Source: a virus. Taken from it: 64,000 bases of DNA. Numbering within the stretch: the stretch's first letter is position 1; every line of letters begins with the position of its first letter. Positions 2,934 to 59,901 of this stretch are shown here, one piece after another. Where the stretch lies: the UHGV virus genome UHGV-0033085. One strand, 5' to 3'. The position numbers were made by a program, and so were the translations under genes. A model generated the notes under the pieces. The model had not been told where the DNA came from. It saw only the letters and a list, made by a program, of their open reading frames with translations, and did not search any database.

Positions 2934-3049
2934 TTAATAAGACATGCCCAGACCTAATTAAACACCCCAGAAAACAAGTTGGTTAGCAGATGCAGTAAAC
3001 AAGTTGTTTTAGAGCGCATGGACGCGCTCTGTGTGTTTTAGAGGGATCT

Positions 3050-3682
3050 ATGACGGTCGAAAAAGACGAGGTAAAAACTCGCCTGACACCAGCGGAGTGG
3101 GCCGAAGCTGAAGCCAAATGGACGTCAGGCGAATATACACTCTCAAAGCTGGAGGAAGAGTACGGCATTCGTCGTGAAACACTCTCCAGACATTTCAAAA
3201 AGCGAGGATTAGAGAAAGGCGCGGACTCTGTTGGGAAGATGGTTCGTGAGTCTCTTAAATCTGACGCAGAGCTTCGCGCTAAAGCCCGTGCGGAAAAGAT
3301 AGAAGAACGTCGTACACGTTATGACGGCTGGGCGTATGCGTTGGGGCAGATGGTGATGGTCGAAGTCACTACGGCCAAACGTGATGGTAAGCCTTTAGGG
3401 GCGATTGAGGATTCTCTCAAGAGCTTACAGAGAGCCAGTAATACCCTTGCAAAATGCTTTGAAGTTTCGTCCAAAGCATTGGGCATGGATCATGCGGAAA
3501 ATGACGAGGAAGAAATTCCGAACCTGGTATTTGGTGAGCTTACGCCTTCCCAGGTGGCGAAATTACGTCAGGAAGACGACGAGCCTGAAATCATCGATGA
3601 CGAATTGCTTGAGACGTTGGAAGAAGAAGCTCTAAGCGAATTTGATGCGACAGATGATGGAAGTGAAGGGGAGGACGAATAA
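3050..3682 (+). CDS. terminase small subunit (putative)
   Basis: Immediately upstream of TerL with ATGA-type coupling; N-terminal helix-rich region, strongly acidic C-terminal tail. Confidence 0.55.
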   Translation: MTVEKDEVKTRLTPAEWAEAEAKWTSGEYTLSKLEEEYGIRRETLSRHFKKRGLEKGADSVGKMVRESLKSDAELRAKARAEKIEERRTRYDGWAYALGQMVMVEVTTAKRDGKPLGAIEDSLKSLQRASNTLAKCFEVSSKALGMDHAENDEEEIPNLVFGELTPSQVAKLRQEDDEPEIIDDELLETLEEEALSEFDATDDGSEGEDE

Positions 3683-4938
3683 TGGCAATCCCGTCCTCGC
3701 TCAGTCTTGTGCAACTGCATTCTGGACAGATGAAAGTCTTCCAGTCTCCGCATCGATTTAAAGTTGTTTGTGCTGGTCGACGCTGGGGAAAATCCCGGTT
3801 GTCGATCTCCACTATTATTCGTGCGGCGGCAAAGGAAAAAAAGCAAAGGGTCTGGTATGTCGCTCCTACTTACCAGATGGCTCGCCAGATTTTGTGGGAC
3901 GATCTACAGGAAGTTCTGCCTCGTAAGTGGGTTAGGAAAAAGAACGACACCACGATGACAATCGTGTTGAAGAACGGTTCGGAGATCGCCCTCAAAGGTG
4001 CTGATAAGCCTGACACTCTGCGCGGCGTAGCGTTGCATTTTGTAGTGCTTGATGAATTTCAGGATATGAAGGCTGACACCTGGTACAAGGTGTTACGACC
4101 TACTCTTTCATCGACACGCGGCGGTGCACTGATCATTGGTACGCCAAAAGGCTTCTCGGAATTTCACAAACTGTGGACTATAGGCCAGAACGTAGAGCTG
4201 CAAAGAAAGGGACAGTGGAAGAGCTGGCAGTTTGTAACTGCCGATTCTCCGTTTGTGCCTACGGCGGAAATTGAAGCTGCTAAGAACGATATGGACCCGA
4301 AATCGTTCGCTCAGGAGTACCTGGCGAGCTTTGAGAACATGTCCGGGCGCGTTTACTACCCGTTCGATCGTAACGTGCATGTAAAACCGCTTCAGTTCAA
4401 CCCTCGGTTGCCTATATGGGTAGGGCAGGACTTCAACATTGACCCGATGTCTTCAGTAATTTTGCAACCTCAGCCAAATGGTGAGCTATGGGCAATTGAT
4501 GAATTGGTGCTCTTTTCCTCTAACACGGCAGAGGTTTGTGATGAGCTTGAGAGACGCTTCTGGCGCTGGAAATCACAGATAACGGTATTTCCAGATCCGG
4601 CAGGTGCTTATCGCCAACATGCTCGCGGGGAGTCTGACGTCGACATTTTCAAAGAGAAGGGATTCTTACGTGTCGATTATTCGAAAAAGCACCCGCCAAT
4701 TGCGGATCGTGTTAATGCTGTTAACCGAATGCTGATGACCGCATCTGGAGATATCCGGTTGTATATCGATCCGAAGTGCAAGCATTTGATTGATTCACTG
4801 GAAAAAGTCATCTACAAGCCTGGAACACGAGATATGGATAAGACAGGTGGCATTGAGCATAGTGCAGACGCATTGGGCTATCCAGTACATCGTAGGTATC
4901 CAGTCAAAAACCGTGTTATTCTTGGTGGTTCTCGATAG
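3682..4938 (+). CDS. terminase large subunit
   Basis: Walker A CAGRRWGKS, Walker B VVLDEFQD, C-terminal nuclease-like region. Confidence 0.85.
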   Translation: MAIPSSLSLVQLHSGQMKVFQSPHRFKVVCAGRRWGKSRLSISTIIRAAAKEKKQRVWYVAPTYQMARQILWDDLQEVLPRKWVRKKNDTTMTIVLKNGSEIALKGADKPDTLRGVALHFVVLDEFQDMKADTWYKVLRPTLSSTRGGALIIGTPKGFSEFHKLWTIGQNVELQRKGQWKSWQFVTADSPFVPTAEIEAAKNDMDPKSFAQEYLASFENMSGRVYYPFDRNVHVKPLQFNPRLPIWVGQDFNIDPMSSVILQPQPNGELWAIDELVLFSSNTAEVCDELERRFWRWKSQITVFPDPAGAYRQHARGESDVDIFKEKGFLRVDYSKKHPPIADRVNAVNRMLMTASGDIRLYIDPKCKHLIDSLEKVIYKPGTRDMDKTGGIEHSADALGYPVHRRYPVKNRVILGGSR

Positions 4939-4964
4939 GTAGGTAATTATCTAAGGTTATTCAA

Positions 4965-6539
4965 ATGGAATTGAACGATAAACAAATTAAGGATCTGGTG
5001 GCGCGACGCCACCCGGAATACGAAAAGAAAAAAGAACATTGGGACTTCCTCGCCAGCACTTATGCTGGCGGGCGTGGTTGGTTTACAGACAATATCTTTC
5101 GTTACTTTAAAGAGGGAGATCAGGAGTTTAAGGAGCGAGTTGAGCGTGCTTATCGTTTCAACCACACTCGTGAGGTGGTAAACCTCATCAACAAATATCT
5201 CTTTAAAGAAGACATTCATAGAAATATCGAAGAGGCACCAGAGCAGATCCGCAATTTCTGGAAACGTGCGACTCGCCAGAATGCCTCTATTGACTCATTT
5301 ATGGCCGCTATTGATTTGCAGTCGTCTATTTACGGTCGCATATGGGTTGTTGTCGATAGCACGATGAGTGGTGATGTTGAGTCAGTAGCTGACGAGAAAA
5401 AGAAAGATGCTCGCGCCTACGCCTACTGGATTTCACCTCAGCAAATGCTGGATGTGGCATGGGACGACGACGGGAATATGTTGTGGGCGTTAATTGTGGA
5501 AGTCGCTCGTGATGACGCAGATCCTTTTACTTCTACAGGTCAGGAATACCAACGTTATCGTCTGTGGACACAAAACGAGTGGTATCTGTTCCGTGAGGAA
5601 GTGAAGAAGGGCGCTGGTGGAGCAGGTCGCCGTCAGGCAAAAGTTATTTTAGAGGATAGCGGTGAGCATAATCTCGGCGTAGTTCCTGTGTTTCCTGTTG
5701 ATTGTATTGGAGAAAGTGAATCACCGTATTTCAGCCCATCGTTGATCGATGATATCGCTTATCTTGATCGTGCGGTTGCAAACTATCTGTCAAACCTTGA
5801 TGCCATTATTCAGGATCAGACATTTAGCCAGTTGGCTATACCGGTACAGTCGCTTTTACCTGGTGATGAAAACCACACTAAAGTGCTTGAAATGGGCACA
5901 AAGCGAGTCTTCACCTACGATTCTGAAGGTGGAAACCAGCCGTTTTATCTGTCACCAGACCCGAAACAAGCTCAGATGATCATCACTACAATTAAGACGG
6001 TGATTAACGAAATCTACCATTCAGTTGGTGTAGCTGGTGAGCGAACGAAGCAGGACAACGCACAGGGAATCGATAATTCATCTGGTGCCGCAAAAATGTA
6101 TGACTTCCAGCGTGTAAATAGCTTGCTTGTCACAAAAGCAGAGCGTCTGGAAAGGGCTGAACGCCAAATCATGCTACTGGTTGCGAAATGGATGGGGGTA
6201 GATCTGGACGAAGACCACTCTTTAATTGCGTATCCAGAAAGTTTCGATATTCGTGGCCTTACTGATGAATTTTCTGTTGCCGAGAAACTGTCATTACTTC
6301 AGGCACCGGACTCTGTACGTCGTCACCAGATGGAAATGCTTATTGAGAAGATTTTCCCGAACATTACTGAGGCGATGAAAAAGGAATTTGATAAAGATCT
6401 CTTGAATTTTCCTCCAAAAAATGATCTAAATACCCTTGAAAATAAGTCAGTACTTACTTATGATCGTGGTGCAGCCCAAGAAAGCGGGCAAGATCAACCC
6501 CGAGGGAATGGGGACTCATCTACTCAAGAGAACGAGTGA
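4965..6539 (+). CDS. portal protein (putative)
   Basis: 524-aa ORF directly after TerL; position and size typical of portal. Confidence 0.6.
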   Translation: MELNDKQIKDLVARRHPEYEKKKEHWDFLASTYAGGRGWFTDNIFRYFKEGDQEFKERVERAYRFNHTREVVNLINKYLFKEDIHRNIEEAPEQIRNFWKRATRQNASIDSFMAAIDLQSSIYGRIWVVVDSTMSGDVESVADEKKKDARAYAYWISPQQMLDVAWDDDGNMLWALIVEVARDDADPFTSTGQEYQRYRLWTQNEWYLFREEVKKGAGGAGRRQAKVILEDSGEHNLGVVPVFPVDCIGESESPYFSPSLIDDIAYLDRAVANYLSNLDAIIQDQTFSQLAIPVQSLLPGDENHTKVLEMGTKRVFTYDSEGGNQPFYLSPDPKQAQMIITTIKTVINEIYHSVGVAGERTKQDNAQGIDNSSGAAKMYDFQRVNSLLVTKAERLERAERQIMLLVAKWMGVDLDEDHSLIAYPESFDIRGLTDEFSVAEKLSLLQAPDSVRRHQMEMLIEKIFPNITEAMKKEFDKDLLNFPPKNDLNTLENKSVLTYDRGAAQESGQDQPRGNGDSSTQENE

Positions 6540-6560
6540 TAAGTAACAAAAGGAATTTTT

Positions 6561-7448: not shown

Positions 7449-7473
7449 CATCTAAATCAAAGGGAATTGATAG

Positions 7474-8414: not shown

Positions 8415-8425
8415 AGGAGCGAGAA

Positions 8426-29363: not shown

Positions 29364-29618
29364 ATGAGCTATGGTGCACAGGTATGGTCGCCATCAAGAC
29401 AGGAGATGGTCGATGCGTTGGCCCCTGTTTATTACCTCGATTATTTTACTCCCTCTGGTTCTGGAAGTAGAACATATGAGGTTGAGGCGGGATTGGGAAT
29501 CGACTATTACATAATGGACGTAACCAATGGGAAATACACAAGTCTTACGGTTTCTGGAAATACCATTTCATGGTCTGGAGCTAGTGGCAATTTAAACATA
29601 TTGGTTTTTCAAAAATAA
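29364..29618 (+). CDS. hypothetical protein (tail fibre-associated cluster)
   Basis: 84-aa ORF with RBS, TAATG-coupled to next ORF. Confidence 0.35.
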   Translation: MSYGAQVWSPSRQEMVDALAPVYYLDYFTPSGSGSRTYEVEAGLGIDYYIMDVTNGKYTSLTVSGNTISWSGASGNLNILVFQK

Positions 29619-32797: not shown

Positions 32798-33115
32798 GTA
32801 TTCCTCCTGATGGCCGTGATGTAGGAAGGCCATCAATCTCCTCTGTTCAAACTGAGTTTTCGACTCAAAAATTACTTTAAAAGGCTATAGCCCATTACGT
32901 GTGCATTATCAAATTGTGTACGGCATATCACCGTACTTGTAATATAGAGGTCATTGTTACTTTTTTCAACAGACAAATACAAGCTATGTTTGCCAATTGT
33001 TAATCACAACCTACCATTTAACCTTTACACCGCAGCCGTAGGCATTTAGGCTATATCACATATAAGAAAACAAATTGTTTCAGACGATAATTATATACGC
33101 AAAGGGAACTCTCCA

Positions 33116-33784
33116 ATGACCAAGATCTTTGTGGTTGGCGGCACAAAGGGCGGGCCTGGCAAATCCACCGTTGCCCAGCAAATTGCCGTTTGCCTGAAAG
33201 TCAAAAAGAAGAAGAAGGTTTATATCACTGATATAGATATTCAGCGCACGACAACGAGCTGGTGTGAAGACCGTCGACAGAACGAATACCTTGAGCTGAT
33301 TCCTTTTGCATACGTTCAGGATGACATCATTAAGCACCTAAAATCGCTTCAGGGTAGAGCTGAGTTTGTAGTGGTAGATGCTGGTGGCTTCGACTCCGAA
33401 ATTCAGCGACAAGCGATGCTGATGGCCGACGTTATCATTATCCCGCTTCGTCCTAAGCGTCGTGATTTGAAATCTCTGCGTGACATCGATCCTATTATCG
33501 ACAATGTTCGCAATGTAAACGATAAAGTGAAGGTCCGCGCGGTCATGAACCAGTGCCCGGCTTTGCCATCACAAGTGTCTCGCATTCTGGCGGCTAAAGA
33601 GATTGTTGAGACGTTTGGAATCGAGTCTGCGCCAGTCAATCTATATAACCGCAACGTCTATGATGATGCGGAAGAGTCTGGTCGTTCTATCTTTGAAATG
33701 ACCGGTAGCGAGCGCGACAAAAAGGCGGAAGCCGAGTTTGAAGAATTTGTAGATTATCTGTTGAGTCTGGAGGAAGAAGAATAA
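33116..33784 (+). CDS. parA: ParA-type partition ATPase
   Basis: Deviant Walker A GGTKGGPGKST; TAATG coupling to downstream gene. Confidence 0.8.
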   Translation: MTKIFVVGGTKGGPGKSTVAQQIAVCLKVKKKKKVYITDIDIQRTTTSWCEDRRQNEYLELIPFAYVQDDIIKHLKSLQGRAEFVVVDAGGFDSEIQRQAMLMADVIIIPLRPKRRDLKSLRDIDPIIDNVRNVNDKVKVRAVMNQCPALPSQVSRILAAKEIVETFGIESAPVNLYNRNVYDDAEESGRSIFEMTGSERDKKAEAEFEEFVDYLLSLEEEE

Positions 33785-34143
33785 TGTCCATGAAAATGGG
33801 TGACCTAGCAAAGCGCAAAGAGCCTGATGCACCGGCTAAGAACACAACTCCTTTGCGCCAACCAGTCAGACCACAGGGACGCCCGACTCGTGGCAAAGAG
33901 AAAATTAAAAGCCGCACAATGTCACTGGAGGACGAATACTTCGAACTGCTGGAGATGATGAAGTTCATCCCTCGCTTCGAGAAGTTCACTCGTTCTGACG
34001 TGATTCGAGCAGCCATTTTCCATCTGGCAGAGAAGTCACCGCAGGAAATCGAGGACATCGTGAAATTGAATGAGGCGATCACCGCTGCCGATGTCACGAT
34101 GCGTACCGATGAAATCAAACGAGAGTTGATGAAGAAAGGTTAA
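33784..34143 (+). CDS. small partition/centromere-binding protein (ParG/ParB-like, putative)
   Basis: 119-aa ORF coupled to parA, basic N-terminus. Confidence 0.45.
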   Translation: MSMKMGDLAKRKEPDAPAKNTTPLRQPVRPQGRPTRGKEKIKSRTMSLEDEYFELLEMMKFIPRFEKFTRSDVIRAAIFHLAEKSPQEIEDIVKLNEAITAADVTMRTDEIKRELMKKG

Positions 34144-34195: not shown

Positions 34196-34963
34196 TTATG
34201 CCGCGCTAACACTATGTTCAGTCCTAACCACCCCAACCTTCACAAAAGGGCTACCGTAGCTTGGTGGCTTCTTGATTAATTTGCCTACATACAGTTTTCT
34301 AATATGCTCATCGGCTATTCTGCCAACAAATTCATAACGTTTTGTGTCGGGGCCAAGAGCTATATCCCTTGTAAAGTACTGCTGAGAACCGGCTTTGACC
34401 CAGCATTCAATCTGATAAACTTCCATTATCAGCCCACCATATGTAGCGTAGGCATATTTGAGATTCTCGTCTCTTGGAACCTTTGCCCATACGCCACGCG
34501 TAGCTTCATATAATGCCAGAGCGGACATTCCTGACTTGTAGGTGCTGTTTAGCAGGAAGGCAAGACCGGCGTGCTCAGGAGCAATTTCAGTTTCCTCTTG
34601 CAGCACTAAGTGATGGTAGGCGTCCAGTGATATTCTGCCCATCATGGAACCACTTCCTCGTACCTTATTCGTAAGCTCTCCGACCCCCATAAGGTCGATG
34701 CATGTCGCCTCAACAAGTTTGGCTGTGGTTTCATCCATACCATGACGAAGTATATCTATGCCTAATTTTTTATTAGCCAAAAGTTCTTTGATCCGCATGG
34801 ATTTGGGAGAGTCATCGGGATACTTGATGTGATCGAGACAACGAGTCGATTTGCCTTTTCCTATGTAAAACGGTCTTTTCATCTTGTCTTCTGTATCATA
34901 GAGACAGTAAACATAGTATTTAGCCTTATCCAATGATCTCGCGTATACCGATAAATCGTCCAT
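34196..34963 (-). CDS. GIY-YIG nuclease domain protein (possible freestanding homing endonuclease)
   Basis: N-terminal YYVYCLYD...KRPFYIGKGK...R...H pattern typical of GIY-YIG. Confidence 0.55.
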   Translation of the reverse strand: MDDLSVYARSLDKAKYYVYCLYDTEDKMKRPFYIGKGKSTRCLDHIKYPDDSPKSMRIKELLANKKLGIDILRHGMDETTAKLVEATCIDLMGVGELTNKVRGSGSMMGRISLDAYHHLVLQEETEIAPEHAGLAFLLNSTYKSGMSALALYEATRGVWAKVPRDENLKYAYATYGGLIMEVYQIECWVKAGSQQYFTRDIALGPDTKRYEFVGRIADEHIRKLYVGKLIKKPPSYGSPFVKVGVVRTEHSVSAA

Positions 34964-35074: not shown

Positions 35075-35129
35075 CCTGCTTCTGTATATATAAATAATAA
35101 GTAACTTATTAAATATATACGGAAGCAGG
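35075..35129. repeat. 55-bp AT-rich palindromic element, copy 2
   Basis: 54/55 identical to 2878-2933; inner palindrome TAATAAGT-A-ACTTATTA. Confidence 0.8.
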
Positions 35130-35245: not shown

Positions 35246-35986
35246 ATGAGCCAAATCTTTTTCGATACCATCGACAACGACCAGTACGACTTCATGACAG
35301 AGTGGAATACCGCTGTTATGGACAAGTGGGTCGCTGAAAACATTGGTTTGTCGCGCTGTAAAGACGAGGCTGAACTCTTCGAGACGAAGTGGTTTGATTA
35401 CCGCGACATGCATCCTCTCATGGCCACCTGTCTTTTTACGGAGGCATACAAACGTCAGTACTCAAATATCATGCTGACGCACGGTCGCGAACACTTTGAA
35501 ACAGCTCCGTTCACCACCGGGTTAAAACGCCTGCCTTATCAGGAGTTGTCGACTGCCAATAAAACGTCGCTATGGAAAGCACGCCAGTTTGCGGATCGCT
35601 ATTGCTGCTCATACGACTACTTTATCTCCACCGTTCTTTCCGCAGCTGCACGACGGCTGTGGGACAAGCTGCCGCGCCCACAGCATTTGTGGCAGCCAGA
35701 ACTGATTGAGATATTTGAAGAGAAATTAGCCAGACGCGCAACAACCCGTCTGGATGACTCTCTTGTTAGCTTTAAGCATATGGGAGACATGCAGTTCAAC
35801 CCGATTCAGGAAAGCTATTTTGAGTGGATTCTGGAGCGTTTGCGCACCATCCCTCGCAGCAAGCGCATACGCGCAATTTTCTCCGCTATCTGGCTAATGG
35901 AAATCGTTCCAGAGCGCCTTATTTCCGCCCACTTTCCAGAAGAACTGGAAGAAGCACGGCGGTTTATTGATCCCCTATCTAATTAA
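35246..35986 (+). CDS. hypothetical protein
   Basis: ATG 35246 in CACATG context; 246 aa. Confidence 0.35.
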   Translation: MSQIFFDTIDNDQYDFMTEWNTAVMDKWVAENIGLSRCKDEAELFETKWFDYRDMHPLMATCLFTEAYKRQYSNIMLTHGREHFETAPFTTGLKRLPYQELSTANKTSLWKARQFADRYCCSYDYFISTVLSAAARRLWDKLPRPQHLWQPELIEIFEEKLARRATTRLDDSLVSFKHMGDMQFNPIQESYFEWILERLRTIPRSKRIRAIFSAIWLMEIVPERLISAHFPEELEEARRFIDPLSN

Positions 35987-36029
35987 CTAATACTAGAAAA
36001 CAATTTGTTTAAAAAACAAAGGAAAGCAC

Positions 36030-40023: not shown

Positions 40024-41342
40024 AAAAGTTGATCGCACTTAAGCATAAGCTGGACGAAATGAAAGCTATGGGCACCAATGCAAAAAAAGAGGCATTGGCC
40101 AACATGGATGACTTTGAACAAAGCATGGTTTCATTGATGCTCAACCCTTTCATCCGTTTTGGGGTAAAGAAATACAAAGTGGCAGAGCCGCTTAGTGAGT
40201 CCATCCCAAGTGACGAAAAAGCCATTGATGTACTGAATAAGCTGGCCTCTCGCGAGCTAACGGGGAACGCAGCAATAGCAGCTGTTGAGTCTATCGTGGC
40301 GTCAATGTGCGCCGATGGGCAGGACGTGTTCCGTCGTTTCCTCTTAAAAGACCCGAAAGCTGGCGTTGGGATTAGCCTATGCAACAAGGTTTTTGAAAAT
40401 CCCATTCCGAAATTCGAGGTGCAGCTGGCGTCACCGTATAAAGAAAAAGGCGACAAATACCCCTTCAAGCCAAATCCTAAAGCAAAATGGCCGATGATTG
40501 GCAGTCTTAAGCTCGATGGTTTGCGAGTAATTTGCGAGGTTATTGTTGACGAGGAAGAGGTTAACTTCCTTTCTCGTACTGGTAATCCAATCACGTCTCT
40601 CGATCACCTAAAGCCAGCCATGCTCGAATTAGGCAAACTTTCAGGCCACAAACACATCTTCTTCGATGGTGAAGGAACTGCCGGTTCATTTAACCAGTCC
40701 GTATCTGCATTGCGCAAAAAGAACGTGCAGGCAATTGGCGCTATTTATCATGTTTTCGACTTCTTCCTACCGGAATGGCGAGCACAGGCTAAATCCAAAG
40801 AGTATGCAAAGACAGGTATGAAGCTGAAAGAGCGCCTGGCTATGCTGGTGGCGTTGTTCAAAAACGATCGCAGTGAAGGCTACACACAAGACATTCACCT
40901 GCATCCGTTCTATATCATCCATAGCCACGAAGACTTCATCGAACGCTTCATGAAACGCCTGGACGATAACGAAGAAGGGGAGATGGGCAAAGATCCGAAC
41001 TCTGTTTACGAGTTTAAACGTACCCGCAGCTGGTGGAAGTTAAAAGACGAAGATTCAGAAGATGGTGAAATTATCGACTTTGAGCCGGGCGACCCGGACT
41101 CTGGTTTTGCCAACACACTTGGAAAAATTGTTATTCGTCTTGAAAACGGCGTCATCGTTCGTGCGAGCGGCATTAAGCATAAATATCTGGATGAGATCTG
41201 GAACAACAAAGAGAAGTACCGTGGTCGTATTGTCGAGGTTCATTGTCACGAGAAAACACCGGACGGCAGCTTACGCCACCCACGACTGAAATGGCCGCGT
41301 TGCTTACGCGATACAGAAGATCGAATCGGAGATAAAGAATGA
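40020..41342 (+). CDS. ATP-dependent DNA ligase
   Basis: Adenylation motif I KLDGLR. Confidence 0.65.
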   Translation: MKKLIALKHKLDEMKAMGTNAKKEALANMDDFEQSMVSLMLNPFIRFGVKKYKVAEPLSESIPSDEKAIDVLNKLASRELTGNAAIAAVESIVASMCADGQDVFRRFLLKDPKAGVGISLCNKVFENPIPKFEVQLASPYKEKGDKYPFKPNPKAKWPMIGSLKLDGLRVICEVIVDEEEVNFLSRTGNPITSLDHLKPAMLELGKLSGHKHIFFDGEGTAGSFNQSVSALRKKNVQAIGAIYHVFDFFLPEWRAQAKSKEYAKTGMKLKERLAMLVALFKNDRSEGYTQDIHLHPFYIIHSHEDFIERFMKRLDDNEEGEMGKDPNSVYEFKRTRSWWKLKDEDSEDGEIIDFEPGDPDSGFANTLGKIVIRLENGVIVRASGIKHKYLDEIWNNKEKYRGRIVEVHCHEKTPDGSLRHPRLKWPRCLRDTEDRIGDKE

Positions 41343-41518
41343 TGCTCGGCTGGATGATTGCATTTTTAGCAGTTGGTTTTTTCATAGGTATTGTGGTGAT
41401 GTCCAGTTGCATCAATGACTACATTAAAAGCGGTGTTATAGAAAGACGCGGTCGTATTTATCGCATTGTAGAAATAACCAACACCCTGAAGGAGATTAAG
41501 GATGATCGTATTAAGTAA
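41339..41518 (+). CDS. small membrane protein (59 aa, not in ORF track)
   Basis: ATGA-coupled to ligase stop; hydrophobic N-terminus. Confidence 0.3.
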   Translation: MMLGWMIAFLAVGFFIGIVVMSSCINDYIKSGVIERRGRIYRIVEITNTLKEIKDDRIK

Positions 41519-41717
41519 ACGGGAGAAGGAAACGCTTCATGAAATCAGTAAGTGGCCGGAGTTCCCTGAGTACTGGAAGCCTAAAACGCGAGCTAAGTTA
41601 GAGCGTTTAGGGTTGGTTGCAAACGTTTCTGAAACGTGGTGTTCGGCCAACTACCAGTTAACTGATAAAGGGAAAGTATTGCTACAGCAATTAGTAGAAT
41701 CAGGAGCGTTAAAATGA
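41502..41717 (+). CDS. hypothetical protein
   Basis: 71-aa ORF. Confidence 0.3.
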   Translation: MIVLSKREKETLHEISKWPEFPEYWKPKTRAKLERLGLVANVSETWCSANYQLTDKGKVLLQQLVESGALK

Positions 41718-43102: not shown

Positions 43103-43178
43103 GCCGGTTTAGCTCAGTTGGTAGAGCGCCTGCCTTGTAAGCAGGATGTCAGCGGTTCGAGTCCGTTAACCGGCACCA
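43103..43178 (+). tRNA. tRNA-Thr (anticodon TGT)
   Basis: Acceptor GCCGGTT/AACCGGC, anticodon arm CCTGC-CTTGTAA-GCAGG, T-loop GGTTCGAGTCC, CCA. Confidence 0.8.
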
Positions 43179-43541
43179 ACACAACAGGTAAGTGCATTGG
43201 GCGAATCGGCGATACTGACCCACAAGCCCGTAAATCGATAGAGTCAGACCAGTGCTCTTACCGTTGTGAGGAAGTGCAGCTCTTTGAGGCAACCAGAAGA
43301 TAAGCATCTGGCTTCACAACACAACGATAAGATCATTACGGTTAATCGTCGTTCATGTGCACAATGACTGGTCGAAAGGTAGTGATCTTACCGTTGTGGT
43401 GGATTCGCAGACTGATGCGATAGCTTTCTTGGATGTTAGGGAAATGCGGCCGCAAATCTTCCCTTTCGCGAGCGGTGATCGTCCGTAGTCCTAATTGGCT
43501 GCACCGTATGCCGGAGATTCAGTACCGGCCACCACAACGGC

Positions 43542-43628
43542 CGGAGAGTAGGGAGCATGGTGCTCAAGCGGTCTTGAAAACCGTCCCATTGCGCAAGCGA
43601 TGATGGTTCGATTCCATTACTCTCCGCC
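43542..43628 (+). tRNA. tRNA-Ser (anticodon TGA), long variable arm
   Basis: Acceptor GGAGAGT/ACTCTCC, anticodon arm GCGGT-CTTGAAA-ACCGT, T-loop GGTTCGATTCC, CCA. Confidence 0.7.
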
Positions 43629-43851
43629 AGACACAGCGTTGAGCGGTTTGGCCTTTTAATCACCCAGATTAAGACTCCGCTAACATAAACCAGACCGCTC
43701 AACGCTGTGATAGACAATTACGGCAGACGTTCTTAACCATAGCTTGCTAACATCCTAGCAACACTTTTTTTCAGCGCAAAATTCAAAGGGGCTTCGGCCA
43801 CTTTTTTTGCAACTGAAAGAGTCAAGTCTACGAACTTTGTAGGAAGAAATA

Positions 43852-44202: not shown

Positions 44203-44444
44203 CGATCACTATCTACGGATGAGATAACTGCTCATACTGCAAACGTGCGGTCGAGCTGGCGAAGCAACTAAAGGGACATGGCTACGGTGATTATGAGTAC
44301 ATCGACATCACCACTGCCGGTATCAACAAGGAAAAACTAAGTGAAATTGTTGGTAAACCGGTAGAGACTATCCCCCAAGTGCTGATCGATGGCCAACCGA
44401 TTGGCGGATACACAGAACTGGCTGCATACGTCAGCACCCTCTGA
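44199..44444 (+). pseudogene. glutaredoxin-like gene (T4 NrdC-type CxxC) with in-frame TGA at codon 8
   Basis: Frame reads MTITIYG-TGA-DNCSYCKRAVELAK...IDGQPIGGYTELAAY; TGA at 44220-44222; no ATG downstream. Confidence 0.5.
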
Positions 44445-44448
44445 TTTT

Positions 44449-44475
44449 AACGGCTCACAGGAGCCGTTTTTATTC
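44449..44475 (+). terminator. rho-independent terminator
   Basis: CGGCTC-ACAG-GAGCCG followed by TTTTTATT. Confidence 0.6.
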
Positions 44476-44524
44476 CCACCAAACTCACTCCCGTTTCCCT
44501 TAAAATTCAAAAAACAACGTCAAA

Positions 44525-44555
44525 ATGATTCCATACCTACTATGTATGGAATCAT
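44525..44555. other. 31-bp perfect inverted-repeat site (12-7-12), candidate recombinase target
   Basis: ATGATTCCATAC-CTACTAT-GTATGGAATCAT, 100 bp upstream of tyrosine recombinase gene. Confidence 0.45.
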
Positions 44556-44654
44556 TACTGAAAATGAGTTACTTTTACTCTTGATCCTATAAGAATCTAT
44601 GCCTAATATACTGTTTACTTATACAGTGCATCGGCGTAACTCGGTGATTGTCAT

Positions 44655-45758
44655 ATGAAAAATAGCTTTGACAGAGCACGCGCTGCGGAGAACACCTCAA
44701 AAGAGGCGATTGAGTATCTCGAAAGAGCATCTCAAATGCAGGCCGTTATGATCTCCCAGGTCAGCAATGACATGAGATTCTCGGACGCATTCATGTTATT
44801 CACTCGCTTATCTCTGCTGATAACAAGACGTCGGCCAGAGATCGCTGTTCATTGTATTTTGATACATGTTTTGCCGCACATTGCCGATGTAAAAGTAAGT
44901 GACATTAATAGGTTCATGGTGAACCAACTGGTCAACCCACTAATACTGGATGGCAAAATTGTTATGGGCCGCCGCGTTTTCTCTCTGATGAAGCAGTTCC
45001 TTAGCTGGTGCGCCTTCCAGGGGATGATAGACGTGTCACCGTTAAACGATATGTCACTTAACAAAGTTGCCGGTGGCGCAAAGCCCACACCTCGCGAGCG
45101 GAAGCTGACCGACGCAGAGGTATGGGTGTTCTGGAATATATGGGACTACTTCAATGTGTGCGCTGGTACAAAATGGGCGGCCAGGCTGTGTCTTGTATCC
45201 GCAAGACGACCTGACGAAGTACTGCGTGCTAAAAAAAGTGAGTTCAATCTTAAGCGTGGGGTTTGGAATCAAGGCAAGAGGAACAAATCTGCCCGTGAGC
45301 ATTCGCTGCCTTTAAGCACATTAATGCGCACATGTATTGAAGAGTTGTTCGAATACGGTAAAGGCAGCCAGTGGCTCGTGCCTTCGAATAAAAAAATCGG
45401 GAAAGACCTTCCTATGTCTAAAGTGGCAATAGCCCAGGCATTACGTCGTATTCTGGAACGACCAGAACTGATGGAGCTTGAGCCATTTACACCCCGAGAC
45501 TTGCGCCGTACTGCGCGTAGTTACTTCCCAGCATTAGACATAAGCCAGGAGGTATCACGCAAAATCATGAACCACAGTCTTGAGGGGATAGATCGAGTCT
45601 ACGACCGGCACGATTATATGGACGAGATGCGAGACGCCTTAGAAAGTTTCTCGACGTACATCGCATCAATCGTAGAGCAACCGGATTTAGACGAAATTGA
45701 CCACAAATTCAAGGGAGATCGTCTATCAACAGAGCTTATTCGTGTAAATTTTTCATAG
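44655..45758 (+). CDS. tyrosine site-specific recombinase (integrase/resolvase family)
   Basis: C-terminal catalytic pattern: R in LRRTARSY, H in MNHS, Y in RVYDRHDY. Confidence 0.75.
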   Translation: MKNSFDRARAAENTSKEAIEYLERASQMQAVMISQVSNDMRFSDAFMLFTRLSLLITRRRPEIAVHCILIHVLPHIADVKVSDINRFMVNQLVNPLILDGKIVMGRRVFSLMKQFLSWCAFQGMIDVSPLNDMSLNKVAGGAKPTPRERKLTDAEVWVFWNIWDYFNVCAGTKWAARLCLVSARRPDEVLRAKKSEFNLKRGVWNQGKRNKSAREHSLPLSTLMRTCIEELFEYGKGSQWLVPSNKKIGKDLPMSKVAIAQALRRILERPELMELEPFTPRDLRRTARSYFPALDISQEVSRKIMNHSLEGIDRVYDRHDYMDEMRDALESFSTYIASIVEQPDLDEIDHKFKGDRLSTELIRVNFS

Positions 45759-46139
45759 AGACTTTATGGCCTCAACAACCTTTTGTGATGCGCCTTTCTC
45801 TTTACCGAATCGCTCGTTATATGCAGCAAGAACCTGTTTTTCGTCCTCGTTAAGAGGAGCGGTGCCTTCTTTGTATAAAAATGCTGCGAGTTCAGGTTGG
45901 CGTTCTTCCAGCACCATCATCATAAGACGACTTGGCTCAATACCCAGCGCCAGCGCCAACGGACGAACCTTATCGATAGGCAAAGGAATTTTGCCACTTT
46001 TAATTAAAGAAAGGTTGTTGGCATTTTTATAACCAATAAGTCTGGCTATTTGGGCCTGACTCATAGGTGAGGATTCAATCAGCCCTGCGATAAAAGCAGC
46101 ATAGCGACTTTCTATAAATTCAATCTTGTTGTCAGACAT
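45753..46139 (-). CDS. XRE-family HTH transcriptional regulator (candidate repressor)
   Basis: HTH segment MSQAQIARLIGYKNANNLSLIKSGK; convergent with recombinase. Confidence 0.6.
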   Translation of the reverse strand: MSDNKIEFIESRYAAFIAGLIESSPMSQAQIARLIGYKNANNLSLIKSGKIPLPIDKVRPLALALGIEPSRLMMMVLEERQPELAAFLYKEGTAPLNEDEKQVLAAYNERFGKEKGASQKVVEAIKSL

Positions 46140-46170
46140 TGTTACAACCTTTGCGCGTTCAATTCTCTCT

Positions 46171-46184
46171 GGTAAGTGCTTACC
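46171..46184. promoter_or_regulatory. palindrome GGTAAGTGCTTACC in regulator upstream region
   Basis: Perfect 6-bp arms; same core as dispersed GTAAGTA motif family. Confidence 0.4.
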
Positions 46185-46389
46185 GATATTACATCAAAGG
46201 TTAGGGTTGTAAAGCTATTATCATTTTTTCGATAGGCACTTAAAAGACCGGTTAAAGGCCATTGCACGGAGAAAAATTAGCCCAAAACAGGTAAGAAAAT
46301 TAACTTGCATATGATATGAATGTATTCAGTATTGATATAAATTTTAGTAGTATTCCTTACCATAGTATAAGTTAGAATGGATTGATTGA

Positions 46390-46602: not shown

Positions 46603-46700
46603 CCCCTCTTCTCCCTGCGCGAATGGCTTAGTTCCCTGTTCGCGCAGTGCTACATTAAACACAGTAGTAAATAATTTGTTTTCATAACAAAGGATTAGCC

Positions 46701-52684: not shown

Positions 52685-52732
52685 GAATTAATTTATAAGA
52701 TAAGAAAACAATTTGTTTAGTGAGTCTTAGAA

Positions 52733-53467
52733 ATGCCGAGTACGAAGTACAAAATCACAGAAGAATGGTTACGTCAGCGTTACATGGTTGACCTGATGAG
52801 AAAAGAAGACATTGCCGCCGAAGCTGGTTGCAGCAAGGCAAATATTGACCGCTTATTAGCCAAATGGGGGATCAGGCGCGGAAGCGCGCGGATCTCCGCT
52901 ACCCCAGCCTGGAATCGTGGCAAAAACAAAAATAATGACGAACGTATGAAGCGTCTCTCCGAAGCCCGGACTGGCACTGGCAACCCTATGTATGGGAAAA
53001 CCTCGTGGAATGCCGGTCTGCGTGCTGATATCGATGAGCGAGTGGCCACCGTTTCGAAAAAGCTAACCGGCAGAACAATCCGCGCGGAGACGAAGGAAAA
53101 GCTGGCGGCTGCCAAACGTGGAAAGATCGGAGAAGAAGCGAACAACTACAAAGGTGGCATCATCGTAAAAACCAACGGCTACATGATGCAGCTGGTTGGT
53201 AACAATGGCGTTTCGCAATACGAATACGTTCATCGATTGATAGCGAAAGAACGTCTCGGTCGGGAGCTACGTGACGATGAACATGTCCACCATATTAACC
53301 GCGATACGATAGATAACGCCCCTGGGAATCTTGTAGCACTTCCAGAAGACGCCCACATTCGCCTGCATAGTGAAATGCGTGAAGAGATATGGAGCTGGGA
53401 GCGCCAACGGAACTGGCTGGCCTCCAATGGGTATGAGTTCGTGAAGATTGATGAGGTGACTGCATGA
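52733..53467 (+). CDS. HNH homing endonuclease (NUMOD-like repeats + HNH)
   Basis: HNH motif HHINRDTIDNAPGNLVALPEDAHIRLH; repeated GKxxWNxG / KRLSEARTG-type motifs. Confidence 0.8.
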   Translation: MPSTKYKITEEWLRQRYMVDLMRKEDIAAEAGCSKANIDRLLAKWGIRRGSARISATPAWNRGKNKNNDERMKRLSEARTGTGNPMYGKTSWNAGLRADIDERVATVSKKLTGRTIRAETKEKLAAAKRGKIGEEANNYKGGIIVKTNGYMMQLVGNNGVSQYEYVHRLIAKERLGRELRDDEHVHHINRDTIDNAPGNLVALPEDAHIRLHSEMREEIWSWERQRNWLASNGYEFVKIDEVTA

Positions 53468-54633: not shown

Positions 54634-54640
54634 TCCAATA

Positions 54641-54670
54641 AACATGGCCTCTATGGCCATGTTTTCTCTT
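54641..54670 (+). terminator. rho-independent terminator after polymerase
   Basis: AACATGGCC-TCTA-TGGCCATGTT followed by TTCTCTT. Confidence 0.6.
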
Positions 54671-54758
54671 ATCCCCTCATATCCCCTATCCTCGAACTCC
54701 TTGCCTTATCATCACAATGATATAATCAATATAAGATGATAAGTAAAAAGGAAAGCAC

Positions 54759-55190
54759 ATGATCACCGATATTTACGAGAAAATAATGTCTGATCTCGAG
54801 TTTGACCGAGACAATCTGGAGGAAGTCTGGCGTAGACAACCCCGCCTTTTAATGGAGTATGGCTCAAAACTCGCTCATGCAGAAAGAAGTGTCGCAGAGG
54901 CAAAACTTAACCTTGAAGCTGTTGAAGCAAAGCTATACGACACAGAGCGTAAGAACTTGAGTATGAACGGCATTAAGTTCAACGAATCTGTACTGGACGC
55001 TAAGGTTAAAACAAACCCACAGTATCTGTCTAAAAGGCAGAAGTTGGATGAAGCACGGCACATCGCAGACATATACAAACATGCTGTCGCCGCCTTTTCG
55101 CATCGCCGAGACATGATCGTTCAGGCGTCAAAGATGGCCATCGTTGAATTAGAGCGATTAGGCTCTGAACGCTTTATTACTCCCCGTTGA
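54759..55190 (+). CDS. hypothetical protein (weak UvsY-like resemblance)
   Basis: 143-aa helical ORF between polymerase and SSB; CACATG start context. Confidence 0.35.
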   Translation: MITDIYEKIMSDLEFDRDNLEEVWRRQPRLLMEYGSKLAHAERSVAEAKLNLEAVEAKLYDTERKNLSMNGIKFNESVLDAKVKTNPQYLSKRQKLDEARHIADIYKHAVAAFSHRRDMIVQASKMAIVELERLGSERFITPR

Positions 55191-55307
55191 TTTTTGATAG
55201 ATAATAAGTAAGTACTGATCTATCATTTAACAGCTCGAAAGAGCCACGAATGAACGAAAGCCCAACGCGCATAGCGCCATCGGCCAAATCACAACAAGGA
55301 GAAACAC

Positions 55308-56336: not shown

Positions 56337-56352
56337 TCCCATTACGTGACCA

Positions 56353-56383
56353 GTAAGGCGTCTACGGACGCCTTACTTTTTGG
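56353..56383 (+). terminator. rho-independent terminator
   Basis: GTAAGGCGTC-TACG-GACGCCTTAC followed by TTTTTGG. Confidence 0.7.
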
Positions 56384-56396
56384 AAGGAATGTACCG

Positions 56397-57341
56397 GTGA
56401 ATTATCTCTTCGTAGATGGCAATAGCCTGGGTTATTACCACCAACAATCTGACAAATTGCACAACGGCGAAATGGAAGTACAGGCTGCTTTCGGCTTTGT
56501 TAAGAACGTCCGTCGTTATGCCTCCATCCTCCATGCCCGACCTATGATTCTTTGGGATGGATTTAGTGACAAGCGTCGCGACTTTTACCCGGACTACAAA
56601 GCAAATCGCGACGACGATCCTGATATGAAAAAGATGAAGGAAGGCTTTGCTATCCAGAAGCCATACATCCTCAAAATGATGACCGCGCTTGGAGTTACCC
56701 AACTCATTGCAAAAGATGCAGAAGCGGATGATCTGGCCGGGCTGCTGGTAGCCAGCATTGCACCGCAGCCAATCGTTGAACACATCTATCTGTTAACAGG
56801 CGATAGCGACTGGCTTCAGTTAGTTCGCGAAAACGTAAGCTGGGTAAGCCTGCGCGAAGACGCCAAAAACAAGCAGGTTAATTTTGAGCAATTTGCGGAG
56901 CTGACAGGATTCGCTACTCCTCGCGCATTTTTGGAAGCAAAAGCATTACAAGGCGATAAATCGGACAACATTAGCGGTGTTGGTGGCATTGGTGCTGGCG
57001 GTGCGAAAGAGCTGCTGCATGAATGGGGAAGTGTCGCAACGATGGTGCGCGGCATCAACGACGGCTCAATCGTGGTTGACAAAGGACGCCATAAGACCGC
57101 CTTCAACAAACTAGCGAAGAATGCCTTCAACGAGAAAACAGGCTGTCGAATGCTCGAAGCGTTCAAGAGAAACATCACGCTAATGAACCTGATTGAGACG
57201 AAGTTTCCGCCTACCGAAATCGAAACAATCAAAGGCAATCGTGACGTGAAAGCATTCGAGCAACTGTGCTACGAGCTGAATTTCCGTTCGTTCCTTGAAG
57301 ACCTTGAAGTGTTTGTTCTTCCATTCGAAAGGTATTGCTAA
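56397..57341 (+). CDS. 5'-3' exonuclease / flap endonuclease (FEN family)
   Basis: GTG 56397 after GGAAGGA; motifs YLFVDGNSLGYY and AEADDLAG. Confidence 0.65.
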   Translation: MNYLFVDGNSLGYYHQQSDKLHNGEMEVQAAFGFVKNVRRYASILHARPMILWDGFSDKRRDFYPDYKANRDDDPDMKKMKEGFAIQKPYILKMMTALGVTQLIAKDAEADDLAGLLVASIAPQPIVEHIYLLTGDSDWLQLVRENVSWVSLREDAKNKQVNFEQFAELTGFATPRAFLEAKALQGDKSDNISGVGGIGAGGAKELLHEWGSVATMVRGINDGSIVVDKGRHKTAFNKLAKNAFNEKTGCRMLEAFKRNITLMNLIETKFPPTEIETIKGNRDVKAFEQLCYELNFRSFLEDLEVFVLPFERYC

Positions 57342-57607
57342 TGCTTAAATCGATTATTAATGGCGCTACAACCACCCCTGCCCAACTGGCAAAAGAGATT
57401 GTCTTTTATCACGGTGAGTACGCTGTCATCGCACTGCCGTCAATTCTAGGCGCTGCCGGAATGAAAGCGACAGATCGCGAGTTTGGATTAGTCAGCGAGC
57501 AGGTCGTAAAAATCCTCGCTCGTGTATCCAGACTCCTTAACCACGATGCGATTGTATTCGACGAATCCGCCGCTTTAAAACGAATCAACGAAACAAAAGG
57601 AGCCTGA
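57335..57607 (+). CDS. hypothetical protein
   Basis: 90-aa ORF coupled to flanking genes. Confidence 0.3.
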   Translation: MLMLKSIINGATTTPAQLAKEIVFYHGEYAVIALPSILGAAGMKATDREFGLVSEQVVKILARVSRLLNHDAIVFDESAALKRINETKGA

Positions 57608-57609
57608 TC

Positions 57610-58683
57610 ATGGCAAAAGGAAAATCCGCACTGGCACTTGCTCTGAAAAAGAAAATCGGTAGCAACGACGAAATTCAGAAAGTAACTCATTGGATTGACA
57701 CAGGCTTTCCTCCGTTAAACAAAGCGATTTCCGGTCGTTACGATGGCGGTTTCCCATGTGGTCGTATCGTAGAAGTATTCGGGCCACCAAGCGCGGGGAA
57801 AACCTTTTTGGCAACGGCAGCAATGATCTCCGCACAGAAACAAGATGGTCTGGCGGTATTCCTCGATCATGAGAACAGTTTTGACGTTGGCCTGGCTGTA
57901 GCCAATGGTTTGAATGCAGATGAGGATGACGGTCAGTGGGTATACAAGCAGCCTGATACCTTCGAAGACTCTGTAGAGTTGATCGGCACAATTCTTAAAT
58001 TGGTACGTGATGAAGAGCTTATTCCTGAATCAGCACCTATCTGTATCGTGGCTGACTCACTTGCGTCTATGGTTCCGAACTCCAAAGCCGAGAAGTTCGA
58101 AAAGATGGCTGAAGGCACTGCCAAAGACAAAGATCAGCTAAACATGAACGACAATACGGCACTGGCTCGTGCGACAAGTGCGAACTTCCCTACTCTGGCT
58201 TTGTGGGCACGCAAATACAACGCCTGCATCATCTTCTTGAATCAGGTTCGCACAAAAATCGGTGTAATGTTTGGCGACCCTACTACGTCTCCAGGTGGAG
58301 ATTCACCGAAGTTCTACGCTTCTGTACGTATCCGTCTTGGTGCATCGGTGATGAAGGATGGTAAAGAGAAGATCGGCCAGGACGTAGGCGCAGAATGCAT
58401 CAAAAACAAAGTTGCACCACCGTATGGCAAATGCACCTGGAAATTCTACTTCGATCCTACTCGTGGCCTCGACGTTATCGAATCGCTCGTCGAGTACATG
58501 CTGGAAGAAGGATACCTGCCAAAGAACGCCAGCGGGCGAGTTGAAATTGGTGACAAGAAATACACCAAATCGCAGATCGTCGAGATGTATCGGGAGAAGC
58601 CACTGGCTGAAATCATTGCGGCTTTGCAGGCAATCGACGACCGAAGAGCAAAAGACAACCCCACCGAGTCAGTAGAAGAGTAA
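57610..58683 (+). CDS. RecA/UvsX-family recombinase
   Basis: Walker A GPPSAGKT; RecA-like core. Confidence 0.7.
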   Translation: MAKGKSALALALKKKIGSNDEIQKVTHWIDTGFPPLNKAISGRYDGGFPCGRIVEVFGPPSAGKTFLATAAMISAQKQDGLAVFLDHENSFDVGLAVANGLNADEDDGQWVYKQPDTFEDSVELIGTILKLVRDEELIPESAPICIVADSLASMVPNSKAEKFEKMAEGTAKDKDQLNMNDNTALARATSANFPTLALWARKYNACIIFLNQVRTKIGVMFGDPTTSPGGDSPKFYASVRIRLGASVMKDGKEKIGQDVGAECIKNKVAPPYGKCTWKFYFDPTRGLDVIESLVEYMLEEGYLPKNASGRVEIGDKKYTKSQIVEMYREKPLAEIIAALQAIDDRRAKDNPTESVEE

Positions 58684-58687
58684 ACAC

Positions 58688-58714
58688 AAGGCGTCCACAG
58701 GACGCCTTTTTTAT
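58688..58714 (+). terminator. rho-independent terminator
   Basis: AAGGCGTCC-ACAG-GACGCCTT followed by TTTTTATC. Confidence 0.7.
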
Positions 58715-58775
58715 CTCTTGAAAATATATAAGTACTTACTTATTATTTTCGCATAACAACCACATAGGAAAACAC

Positions 58776-58976
58776 ATGATCAAAATCTATCTATTGGCAG
58801 TAGCCACAGGCGTTTCAGTGGCTCTCATCTACGGTTTACTGGTTCCGTCGCTGATTTCTACCAAGAGTGATTTAGCCGTCATGTTTGGAGTTATCGTTGG
58901 TTTTGGTGCTCCTGTAATCGGTCTTATTGCTGGTCGTAAGTTTATCAACTCATTAATCAAAGCAAAGGGGAAATAA
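58776..58976 (+). CDS. small two-TM membrane protein
   Basis: 66 aa, two hydrophobic helices; precedes SPFH gene by 3 nt. Confidence 0.4.
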   Translation: MIKIYLLAVATGVSVALIYGLLVPSLISTKSDLAVMFGVIVGFGAPVIGLIAGRKFINSLIKAKGK

Positions 58977-58979
58977 GTA

Positions 58980-59810
58980 ATGAAGAAAGGTTTACTTGCA
59001 GTTGCTCTGGCGGCTATTTGCACAATGGGTCTTACTGGCTGTGATCGCGTGGAGCCTGGATACGTTGGCATCAAAGTAAACAAATTAGGTGAAGACAAAG
59101 GGATCGGTGAAGTGGTTGGCGTTGGTCGCCAATGGACAGGTCTTAACACCGAACTTTACGTATTCCCGACCTTCAAACAAATGAAGACCTACGACGAGCC
59201 GTTCACATTCCAGATGAGTGACGGTACTGCTATTGGTCACAAAATTGGCGTTGCGTATCTGGTTAATCGTGACAAGGTAACGACGGTGTTCCAGACCTAT
59301 CGCAAAGGCGTAGACGATATCACCGAATCAGATCTGCGTCAGAAAATTGCCGACTCTCTAAACCGTTTGGCCAGCCGTATGACCACTGACTCATTTATCG
59401 ACGGTGGTAAGGCGCAATTGCTGGACAACGCACTGAAAGATATTCAGAAAGAGATGTCTCCGGTTGGTATTGAGGTACTGAGCCTGTCATGGGTTGGAAA
59501 GCCTGATTACCCAAAAACCGTCATTGAATCTATCAACGCCAAAGTAACGGCTAACCAGCGTACTCTGCAACGTCAGCAGGAAGTTGAACAGCGTAAAGCT
59601 GAGGCGAATATGCTACGTGAACAGGCTAATGGTGAAGCTGATGCTATCCGTGCTCGTGCGCAAGCAGAAGCCGACGCCATTCGTCTGCGCGGTGAAGCTC
59701 TGCGTCAAAACCCGAACGTTATGGAGCTGGAAGTCATCAATAAATGGAATGGCCAGTTACCGCAGTACATGACTCAAGGGGCTAACACTCCTTTCATTAC
59801 AGTGAAATAA
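58980..59810 (+). CDS. SPFH/band-7 domain lipoprotein
   Basis: Lipobox LTGC after signal peptide; SPFH-like core; C-terminal Ala/Glu/Arg-rich coiled coil. Confidence 0.6.
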   Translation: MKKGLLAVALAAICTMGLTGCDRVEPGYVGIKVNKLGEDKGIGEVVGVGRQWTGLNTELYVFPTFKQMKTYDEPFTFQMSDGTAIGHKIGVAYLVNRDKVTTVFQTYRKGVDDITESDLRQKIADSLNRLASRMTTDSFIDGGKAQLLDNALKDIQKEMSPVGIEVLSLSWVGKPDYPKTVIESINAKVTANQRTLQRQQEVEQRKAEANMLREQANGEADAIRARAQAEADAIRLRGEALRQNPNVMELEVINKWNGQLPQYMTQGANTPFITVK

Positions 59811-59825
59811 CTCCCCTAAAAAGTT

Positions 59826-59853
59826 CAGGCGTCCAGTTGGACGCCTTTTTTAT
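59826..59853 (+). terminator. rho-independent terminator
   Basis: AGGCGTCC-AGTT-GGACGCCT followed by TTTTTATC. Confidence 0.7.
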
Positions 59854-59901
59854 CGCAATTATCTTATTAAGAAAACAATTTGTTTAAAAGGATAAGAAAA
59901 C

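Follow-up and report, generated by a model that had tools for sequence, protein, structure and literature searches.

Introduction

In the phage-plasmid P1 (∼100 kb), a single regulator motif, the C1 operator, is scattered before many operons, including that for replication; this operator is an asymmetric 17-mer, ATTGCTCTAATAAATTT. The IncP plasmid RK2 carries short palindromes (12–13 bp) for KorA and KorB at ∼7–12 plasmid promoters, some of them over the −10 or −35 region, and KorB doubles as a partition protein. The ω protein of pSM19035 and ParG of TP228 are small proteins encoded beside a short ParA that repress several promoters, including their own, and bind the centromere, with ω binding adjacent 7 bp subsites in direct or inverted orientation. 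Here, we describe a 13-base palindrome, AAACAAnTTGTTT (18-mer version AAGAAAACAATTTGTTTA), that recurs before genes in the virus genome UHGV-0033085, of which a stretch of 64,000 nucleotides (the window) was analysed, and in its relatives, and which we read, on balance, as the operator of a repressor.

The dispersed arrangement is that of P1, and by this analogy it fits a shut-off in the plasmid state; the motif itself is a 13 bp palindrome and not an asymmetric 17-mer, and no C1 homologue was seen, no search having been aimed at one. Palindromes of similar length at many promoters are shared with RK2, but the KorA and KorB sequences, TTTAGCSGCTAAA and GTTTAGCTAAAC, are unrelated to the motif and the candidate binding protein here is a small protein encoded after a type Ib parA gene rather than a ParB-family member. 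The halves AAACAAn/nTTGTTT lie 7 bp apart centre to centre, like the subsites of ω; in contrast to ω and ParG, a single palindrome instead of an array is present upstream of parA, and the candidate has no detectable sequence similarity to these proteins. As at lac O1, the palindrome would be centred from a few to ∼16 bp past the transcription start, sometimes with a second copy about five helical turns away, but this analogy is one of position only, with unrelated sequences and proteins. The element is thus of a familiar kind, yet it is undescribed for the SSU5-like family in the literature searched: a literal search with 13-mer variants found no paper mentioning the motif in the searchable literature, and no regulatory study or description of a regulatory circuit came up there in searches that combined SSU5 with promoter or repressor terms.

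A 20 kb piece of the window is 98.4% identical to Escherichia phage CMS-2020a and 97.3% identical to phage Cyrano of E. coli LF82, and matches Salmonella phage SSU5 at 80% across 60% of its length. The region of an HNH endonuclease gene matches E. coli plasmids of ∼108–114 kb at 99.9%. From these sequence matches, the window is part of an SSU5-like E. coli phage-plasmid. Related genomes align across 32–60% only, with 77–80% identity. The ATG of the small terminase subunit gene (terS) is at position 3050 of the window and position 135 of Cyrano.

Occurrence of the palindrome in the window

The window was scanned with the pattern AAACAANTTGTTT, allowing at most one mismatch, with 100 shuffles as the background. 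Seven matches were found compared with 0.38 expected; the maximum in a shuffle was three and none of the 100 reached seven. A reading made earlier from the DNA letters without database searches (the sequence-only reading) had claimed a palindromic motif repeated before these genes, and the scan bears this out. The cores, all of which precede start codons on the + strand, are as follows.

2972–2984, distal copy of the terS pair (AAACAAGTTGGTT, one mismatch), 25 bp start to start from the next copy and 65 nt before the start codon
2997–3009, proximal copy of the terS pair (AAACAAGTTGTTT), 40 nt before the start codon; best weight-matrix score, 26.2
33068–33080, copy 35 nt before parA (222 residues, ATG at 33116), 15 nt past the predicted −10 box, centre ∼+16
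35998–36010, copy 19 nt before the DnaB-like helicase gene, 3 nt past the predicted −10 box, centre ∼+4
46669–46681, copy 19 nt before the CobT-like gene (AAATAATTTGTTT, one mismatch), 12 nt past the −10 box; score 22.6
52706–52718, copy inside the HNH insertion, 14 nt before the HNH ATG
59873–59885, copy 16 nt before the DUF7238 open reading frame (ORF) at 59902, 10 nt past the predicted −10 box

Six of these positions agree with the sequence-only reading, while the weak copy before the CobT-like gene had been placed at 46672–46686, an offset of 3 nt. The distance of 20–35 bp to the start codon given there has to be replaced by the gaps of 14–65 nt listed above. The copies at 52.7 and 59.9 kb, described as identical over 18 bp, are in fact identical across 19 nt (TAAGAAAACAATTTGTTTA). 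A weight matrix trained on sites of SSU5 and of the Klebsiella element pJN2-26 only, the kind of scan that had been proposed, returned exactly the same seven sites as its top window matches (scores 15.8–26.2). Shuffle maxima had a mean of 11.7 and a peak of 17.9, and the site at 2972 (15.8) is inside this range by score alone. All seven copies fall within the 8.4% of the window that is outside long ORFs. The next weight-matrix match, at 29594–29612 (TTTAAACATATTGGTTTTT, 13.9), is sub-threshold and lies at the junction of two small ORFs past the tail fibre gene.

Conservation in related elements

Scans of the complete relatives, with at most one mismatch allowed, gave 18 copies in Cyrano (E. 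coli), 20 in SSU5 (Salmonella) and 17 in pJN2-26 (Klebsiella), most of them at shared gene positions (terS, parA, the helicase, CobT-like, nrdB and tciA-like genes and a run of small early genes). Among viral contigs, the exact 18-mer was found mainly on SSU5-like contigs, often several times per locus. One divergent locus (L058) aligns to the references over 27% only, yet contains eight copies in the same arrangement, and in two lineages in which the protein encoded next to parA is 50% and 68% identical the palindrome is retained before parA and the helicase gene with changed flanks.

In five-genome alignments of the regions upstream of the helicase gene and parA, nearly all conserved columns belong to one of three blocks: a −35-like box, a −10-like box or the palindrome. 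The conserved blocks upstream of parA, bar a few scattered columns, are the −35-like box, TTAGGCTA and ATAAGAAAACAnnTTGTTT. Upstream of the helicase gene, TTGAT(C/T), in which TTGAT is invariant, is followed after 16 bp by the −10 box and 3–5 nt further on by the palindrome; the −10 box varies (AATACT, TAGTAT, TACGAT, CATAAT and TAAACT), but position 2 is always A and position 6 always T. The promoter of the CobT-like gene keeps TGnTAnnTT (TGaTAAATT in SSU5 and TGtTATTTT in pJN2-26), with the palindrome 11–12 nt later. Both 6 nt halves of the palindrome are conserved in at least four diverged elements and all four bases occur at the centre; as judged from these alignments, a twofold-symmetric sequence is conserved under selection and its central base is unconstrained. 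Because the palindrome is conserved in the Salmonella and Klebsiella relatives, it is most likely to be the binding site of a regulator, and we regard the palindrome as a genuine cis-regulatory element that selection maintains in the SSU5-like phage-plasmids.

Placement relative to predicted promoters

The copies were compared with −35 and −10 boxes predicted for the following segments.

33024–33052, + strand, predicted parA promoter: −35 TTTACA (33024–33029), 17 bp spacer, −10 TAGGCT (33047–33052), from the five-genome alignment
35967–35994, + strand, predicted helicase promoter: −35 TTGATC (35967–35972), 16 bp spacer, −10 AATACT (35989–35994)
46648–46656, + strand, extended −10 box (TGcTACATT) predicted for the promoter of the CobT-like gene
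59828–59862, + strand, terminator hairpin GGCGTCC-agtt-GGACGCC and T6 (59828–59851), then predicted −10 AATTAT (59857–59862), the counterpart of which in SSU5 is TATTAT

Alignment of the copies revealed two placements, downstream and upstream of the −10-like box. In the downstream placement, which is that of all window copies, the −10-like box is followed by the extended form AAGAAAACAAnTTGTTTA, the ribosome-binding site and the ATG. The gap from the −10 box to the palindrome is 3 nt for the helicase gene, 10–12 nt for ORF 59902 and the CobT-like gene, 13–14 nt in the early region (TGnGATAAT) and 15 nt for parA. The early-region module, which is outside the window, is highly regular and consists of cTTTTA, tGCCTTWT, 7 nt, TGnGATAAT, 13 nt and the palindrome. 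The upstream placement is also found outside the window; here the palindrome, centred at ∼−38, is followed by TCTRCCTTTT, with a TGnGAWAAT box 19 nt after the palindrome. Both placements occur together exactly 51 bp apart in Cyrano (93114/93165), SSU5 (88319/88370) and the loci L058 (3585/3636) and L010 (4067/4118); the promoter-facing side in these pairs is always AGA/TCT, and the two copies form a 16 nt inverted repeat around the promoter. A second pair spacing, 25 bp, occurs before terS and in one non-coding region.

A core promoter element would be expected at a fixed distance from the other promoter elements, and such a distance was not found. Since the distance from the −10 box to the palindrome varies while always remaining within the region that RNA polymerase would cover (∼−55 to +20) at the predicted promoters, the palindrome is better described as an operator than as a core promoter element. 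The suggestion in the sequence-only reading of an operator or promoter-associated signal is consistent with these observations, as the copies are intergenic, are kept at the same gene positions despite diverged flanks and lie within or adjoining predicted σ70-type promoters.

The same distances bear on the proposal that the palindrome is a positive element for a phage activator or a phage-modified RNA polymerase, marking a temporal (early or middle) promoter class whose activator is absent in the lysogen. Silence in the lysogen (see below) would fit this proposal equally well, and it would account for motif-linked promoters that are without a good −35 box and go undetected in a σ70 scan, for the poor −10 boxes of the terS and HNH copies and for the additional conserved box GCCTTWT that adjoins the −35 position in the early-region copies and presumably resembles the T4 MotA box, TGCTTtA. 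However, an activator site is expected at a fixed distance, whereas the palindrome lies 3–15 nt past the −10 box and elsewhere 19 nt upstream of it, and action from +4 to +16 is rare for activators. Furthermore, several of the linked promoters have TGnGATAAT or TGnTATTAT boxes and should work unaided, as extended −10 promoters do not need an activator. For the motif as a whole, a positive element is accordingly rather improbable, but it may apply to the terS and HNH copies, which match poorly.

Transcription would place most copies in a short leader, 14–40 nt before the start codon, which raises the question of whether the palindrome acts in RNA, at the mRNA 5′ end before the ribosome-binding site, as the target of a translational regulator. 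SSU5-like elements encode a full-length FljA-family protein (a flagellin mRNA repressor), conserved among them, which could play this part.

Cyrano 100780–101301, outside the window, FljA-family candidate CYRAN_114 (Pfam PF03614, E = 1e-80)

FljA represses translation of the fliC mRNA (PMC2652032), and pairing between the palindrome's right half and AACAAAGG at the ribosome-binding site is possible in the leaders of the helicase and CobT-like genes. Structure in the RNA is, however, weak and not significant: the palindrome alone folds with only −0.7 kcal/mol (z = −0.5). Of the six window leaders that were folded, five are weak (−2.3 to −6.0 kcal/mol), with z values of 0 to −2.1 for the leaders other than that of terS. 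In single-stranded RNA, symmetric conservation of the two halves would make sense only for a hairpin, and as this hairpin is negligible the symmetry argues against an RNA role. Variants with a single mismatch are uncompensated (double compensatory changes were not sought, the scans allowing one mismatch only), copies also occur upstream of promoters in the opposite orientation, the distance to the start codon varies between 11 and 35 nt, and the FljA homologue is only approximately twofold over background in the lysogen. An operator at the RNA level is unlikely, and we give the model of a FljA-type translational regulator little credence.

The copies might also be sites for the host nucleoid protein IHF, or the terS pair might be bound by the small terminase subunit in the manner of λ cosB. 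The palindrome is rich in AT and bears a loose resemblance to WATCAANNNNTTR, the consensus for IHF, but AAACAAnTTGTTT differs from it on either strand at two of the nine specified positions (the T of WATCAA and the R of TTR). The terS pair is kept in Cyrano (57/82) and SSU5 (56/81), where it is found between the start of the linear record and terS, at 55–95 bp from the first base; λ cosB occupies this position relative to the terminase gene. A packaging site does not fit the ∼18–20 near-identical copies at promoters genome-wide, and pJN2-26 has a single copy before terS. Both ideas are very unlikely for the motif; a cosB-like reading could concern the terS pair only. The leader between this pair and terS contains a further element.

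3011–3039, + strand, hairpin resembling a terminator (AGAGCGC-N6-GCGCTCT, then GTGTGTTTT) that separates the motif pair from the ATG of terS

The 93 nt terS leader folds with −25.5 kcal/mol (z = −2.3), and the hairpin stem is kept in SSU5 and pJN2-26. It appears to be a leader terminator and hints at control of the packaging/late operon by antitermination.

Expression in the lysogen and the repressor model

In published per-gene RNA-seq of the LF82/Cyrano lysogen (table S1), the median is 9.8 and motif-linked genes are at 5.7–12.9: terS 7.1, the CobT-like gene 7.8, CYRAN_58 5.7, nrdB 12.9, CYRAN_85 7.0, CYRAN_87 7.1, CYRAN_93 6.3, CYRAN_101 7.5, CYRAN_105 12.8, CYRAN_106 12.2, CYRAN_108 5.7 and CYRAN_110 6.7 (PMC9928086). 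Expression is low even at near-consensus −10 boxes with a TG extension, and the silence of such promoters is compatible with repression. The motif, its conservation and its placement relative to the boxes come from the present analysis and the silence of the linked genes from the published data; from these we infer the transcription start positions, the repression and the identity of the binding protein. In the same lysogen, CYRAN_43 (Cyrano 40268–40822, window ∼43150–43720) is expressed ∼700-fold over background.

Our preferred interpretation, which we hold to be somewhat better than an even guess, is that the phage-plasmid encodes a regulator, most likely a repressor, for which the palindrome serves as operator at σ70-type promoters. 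The regulator would bind the palindrome as a dimer or tetramer. Its operator would overlap host σ70-type promoters, mostly just past the −10 box and across the predicted start and early transcribed region (centres at ∼+4 to +16). The −35 region would be covered instead (centre ∼−38) in some promoters that are outside the window, and a few promoters would have operators at both positions, exactly 51 bp apart. The bound protein would block RNA polymerase, such that ∼18–20 dispersed operons, including those for replication, nucleotide metabolism, small early genes, packaging and partition, would be silent in the plasmid state.

Several points weigh against a repressor operator. Silence in the lysogen is weak evidence because the majority of the element's genes are silent whether or not they have the motif, and three genes are above background despite it (parA at 49.8, the helicase gene at 21 and CYRAN_111 at 25.5; PMC9928086). 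The −35 and −10 boxes and start sites are all predictions from the DNA sequence. A simple σ70 scan calls none of the motif-linked promoters because each is below the hexamer-match thresholds, and the terS and HNH copies have no convincing −10 box with A at position 2. Finally, the annotated repressor CYRAN_45 (helix–turn–helix, HTH; window 45753–46139) was rejected as the binding protein because its gene is absent from SSU5, which retains the motif. The control region of CYRAN_45 itself has palindromes of the GGTAAGTGCTTACC type and not the motif; between this HTH repressor-like gene and a divergent ORF of 70 residues (46140–46389), GGTAAGTGCTTACC is found at 46171–46184 together with related half-sites. 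The integrase–repressor module around this region is missing from SSU5.

Candidate binding proteins

The following proteins were considered as binders of the palindrome, in addition to the FljA-family protein described above.

33784–34143, + strand, protein of 119 residues encoded directly after the small parA gene; annotated as RelE/ParE in Cyrano
2587–2853, small conserved protein, weakly winged-helix-like; silent in the lysogen
41502–41717, small conserved protein, weakly winged-helix-like; silent in the lysogen
CYRAN_117, outside the window, small conserved protein; expressed in the lysogen

A ParB_N-domain protein (window 98–799) is at background level in the lysogen.

The protein encoded after parA is the leading candidate, albeit with low confidence. 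It is 91–93% identical in SSU5 and pJN2-26 and its expression in the lysogen is 89 compared with the median of 9.8 (PMC9928086). The sequence has a conserved N-terminal MGDLAKR, a disordered basic N-terminus and a strand-plus-two-helix pattern, in which an invariant SRTMS segment is followed by helices at residues 48–60 and 70–84; the product looks more like a type Ib partition adaptor than a RelE/ParE toxin. The order of palindrome, parA and candidate gene fits the location of a type Ib partition operator. The parA operon is the only clearly active motif-bearing operon in the lysogen, which is what negative autoregulation would look like. A ribbon–helix–helix fold would be expected of the binder of a type Ib partition operator or centromere; the AlphaFold model of the protein has a mean pLDDT of 63, which is low, and no Pfam, PDB-sequence or Foldseek match was found that would support this fold; hhalign against ParG and ω sequences gave a probability below 1%. 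A genome scan for covariation between palindrome and protein gave only six close relatives, and the comparison was empty because all six share the same recognition segment.

It is conceivable, although we regard it as doubtful, that this protein binds the palindrome and, besides being the partition adaptor, silences lytic genes genome-wide; the ∼20 operators would then also constitute a scattered centromere. The repeat array of a type Ib centromere was not found upstream of parA, where a single palindrome is present. If the proposal is true, one ω/KorB-like protein would govern both plasmid segregation and the lysogeny switch in SSU5-like phage-plasmids.

The HNH insertion in dnaE

The sequence-only reading had proposed that an HNH gene inserted in dnaE carries its own copy of the motif, and comparison with the relatives supports this.

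52685–53463, + strand, insertion splitting dnaE, with an AT-rich, promoter-like stretch, the palindrome and the HNH/NUMOD3 ORF (52733–53467)

In Cyrano, dnaE is a single ORF of 1168 residues and it is also intact in SSU5, whereas in the window this segment of ∼780 bp separates two ORFs that match residues 1–781 and 785–1166 of Cyrano DnaE, with all but three aligned residues covered. Pfam identifies HNH_3 and NUMOD3 in the HNH ORF. No group I intron was found around the gene by Rfam at E values up to 1. The insertion is present in 25 of 119 related plasmids; in phage records, the cassette has no DNA match and only remote protein relatives with <40% identity. From its sequence, the insertion appears to be a free-standing homing endonuclease cassette and not an intron or intein. 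On the − strand, an ORF of the GIY-YIG (LEM-3-like) type at 34196–34963 is located where Cyrano has a different gene on the + strand, and this may be a second endonuclease-type insertion.

Other repeated elements

The sequence-only reading had set the palindrome apart from a family of sites with the motif GATAAGTA, and the two are indeed distinct: the latter is a different, ∼22 bp near-palindrome of the form GATAAGTAAGTAnTTAcCTATC at other intergenic sites, often before structural genes, and is kept in SSU5 and pJN2-26. It is probably a second regulatory class, and presumably resembles the T4 late promoter, TATAAATA.

6538, 8364, 18425, 30465, 35213, 38661, 42163/42177, 48826 and 54738, window sites of the GATAAGTA family

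An element of ∼55 bp occurs twice, at 2878–2932 and 35075–35129, and consists of 17 nt inverted arms, CCTGCTTCTGTATATAT and ATATATACGGAAGCAGG, around the centre AATAATAAGTAA. In the first copy, the right arm (window 2916) is exactly where the linear Cyrano record starts; that of SSU5 starts one base before it. The element may serve in packaging or recombination, with a duplicate near the par/replication region. At Cyrano 94.3–95.7 kb (∼44380–45630 in the locus L002), the translations of CYRAN_103 and CYRAN_104 are not protein-like; this region is conserved, looks non-coding and has one copy of the motif or a pair, and may represent an origin or an RNA gene.

Conclusions

SSU5-like phage-plasmids are frequent in E. 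coli, Salmonella Typhi (pHCM2) and Klebsiella, and some of them carry resistance genes. The copy of the palindrome before the HNH gene suggests that a homing endonuclease cassette in dnaE is wired into the control system of its host element. A single 18-base motif that marks ∼20 promoters provides an experimental handle on this family, as a bait for the regulator and as an entry to its regulon and to the switch between the plasmid and lytic states.

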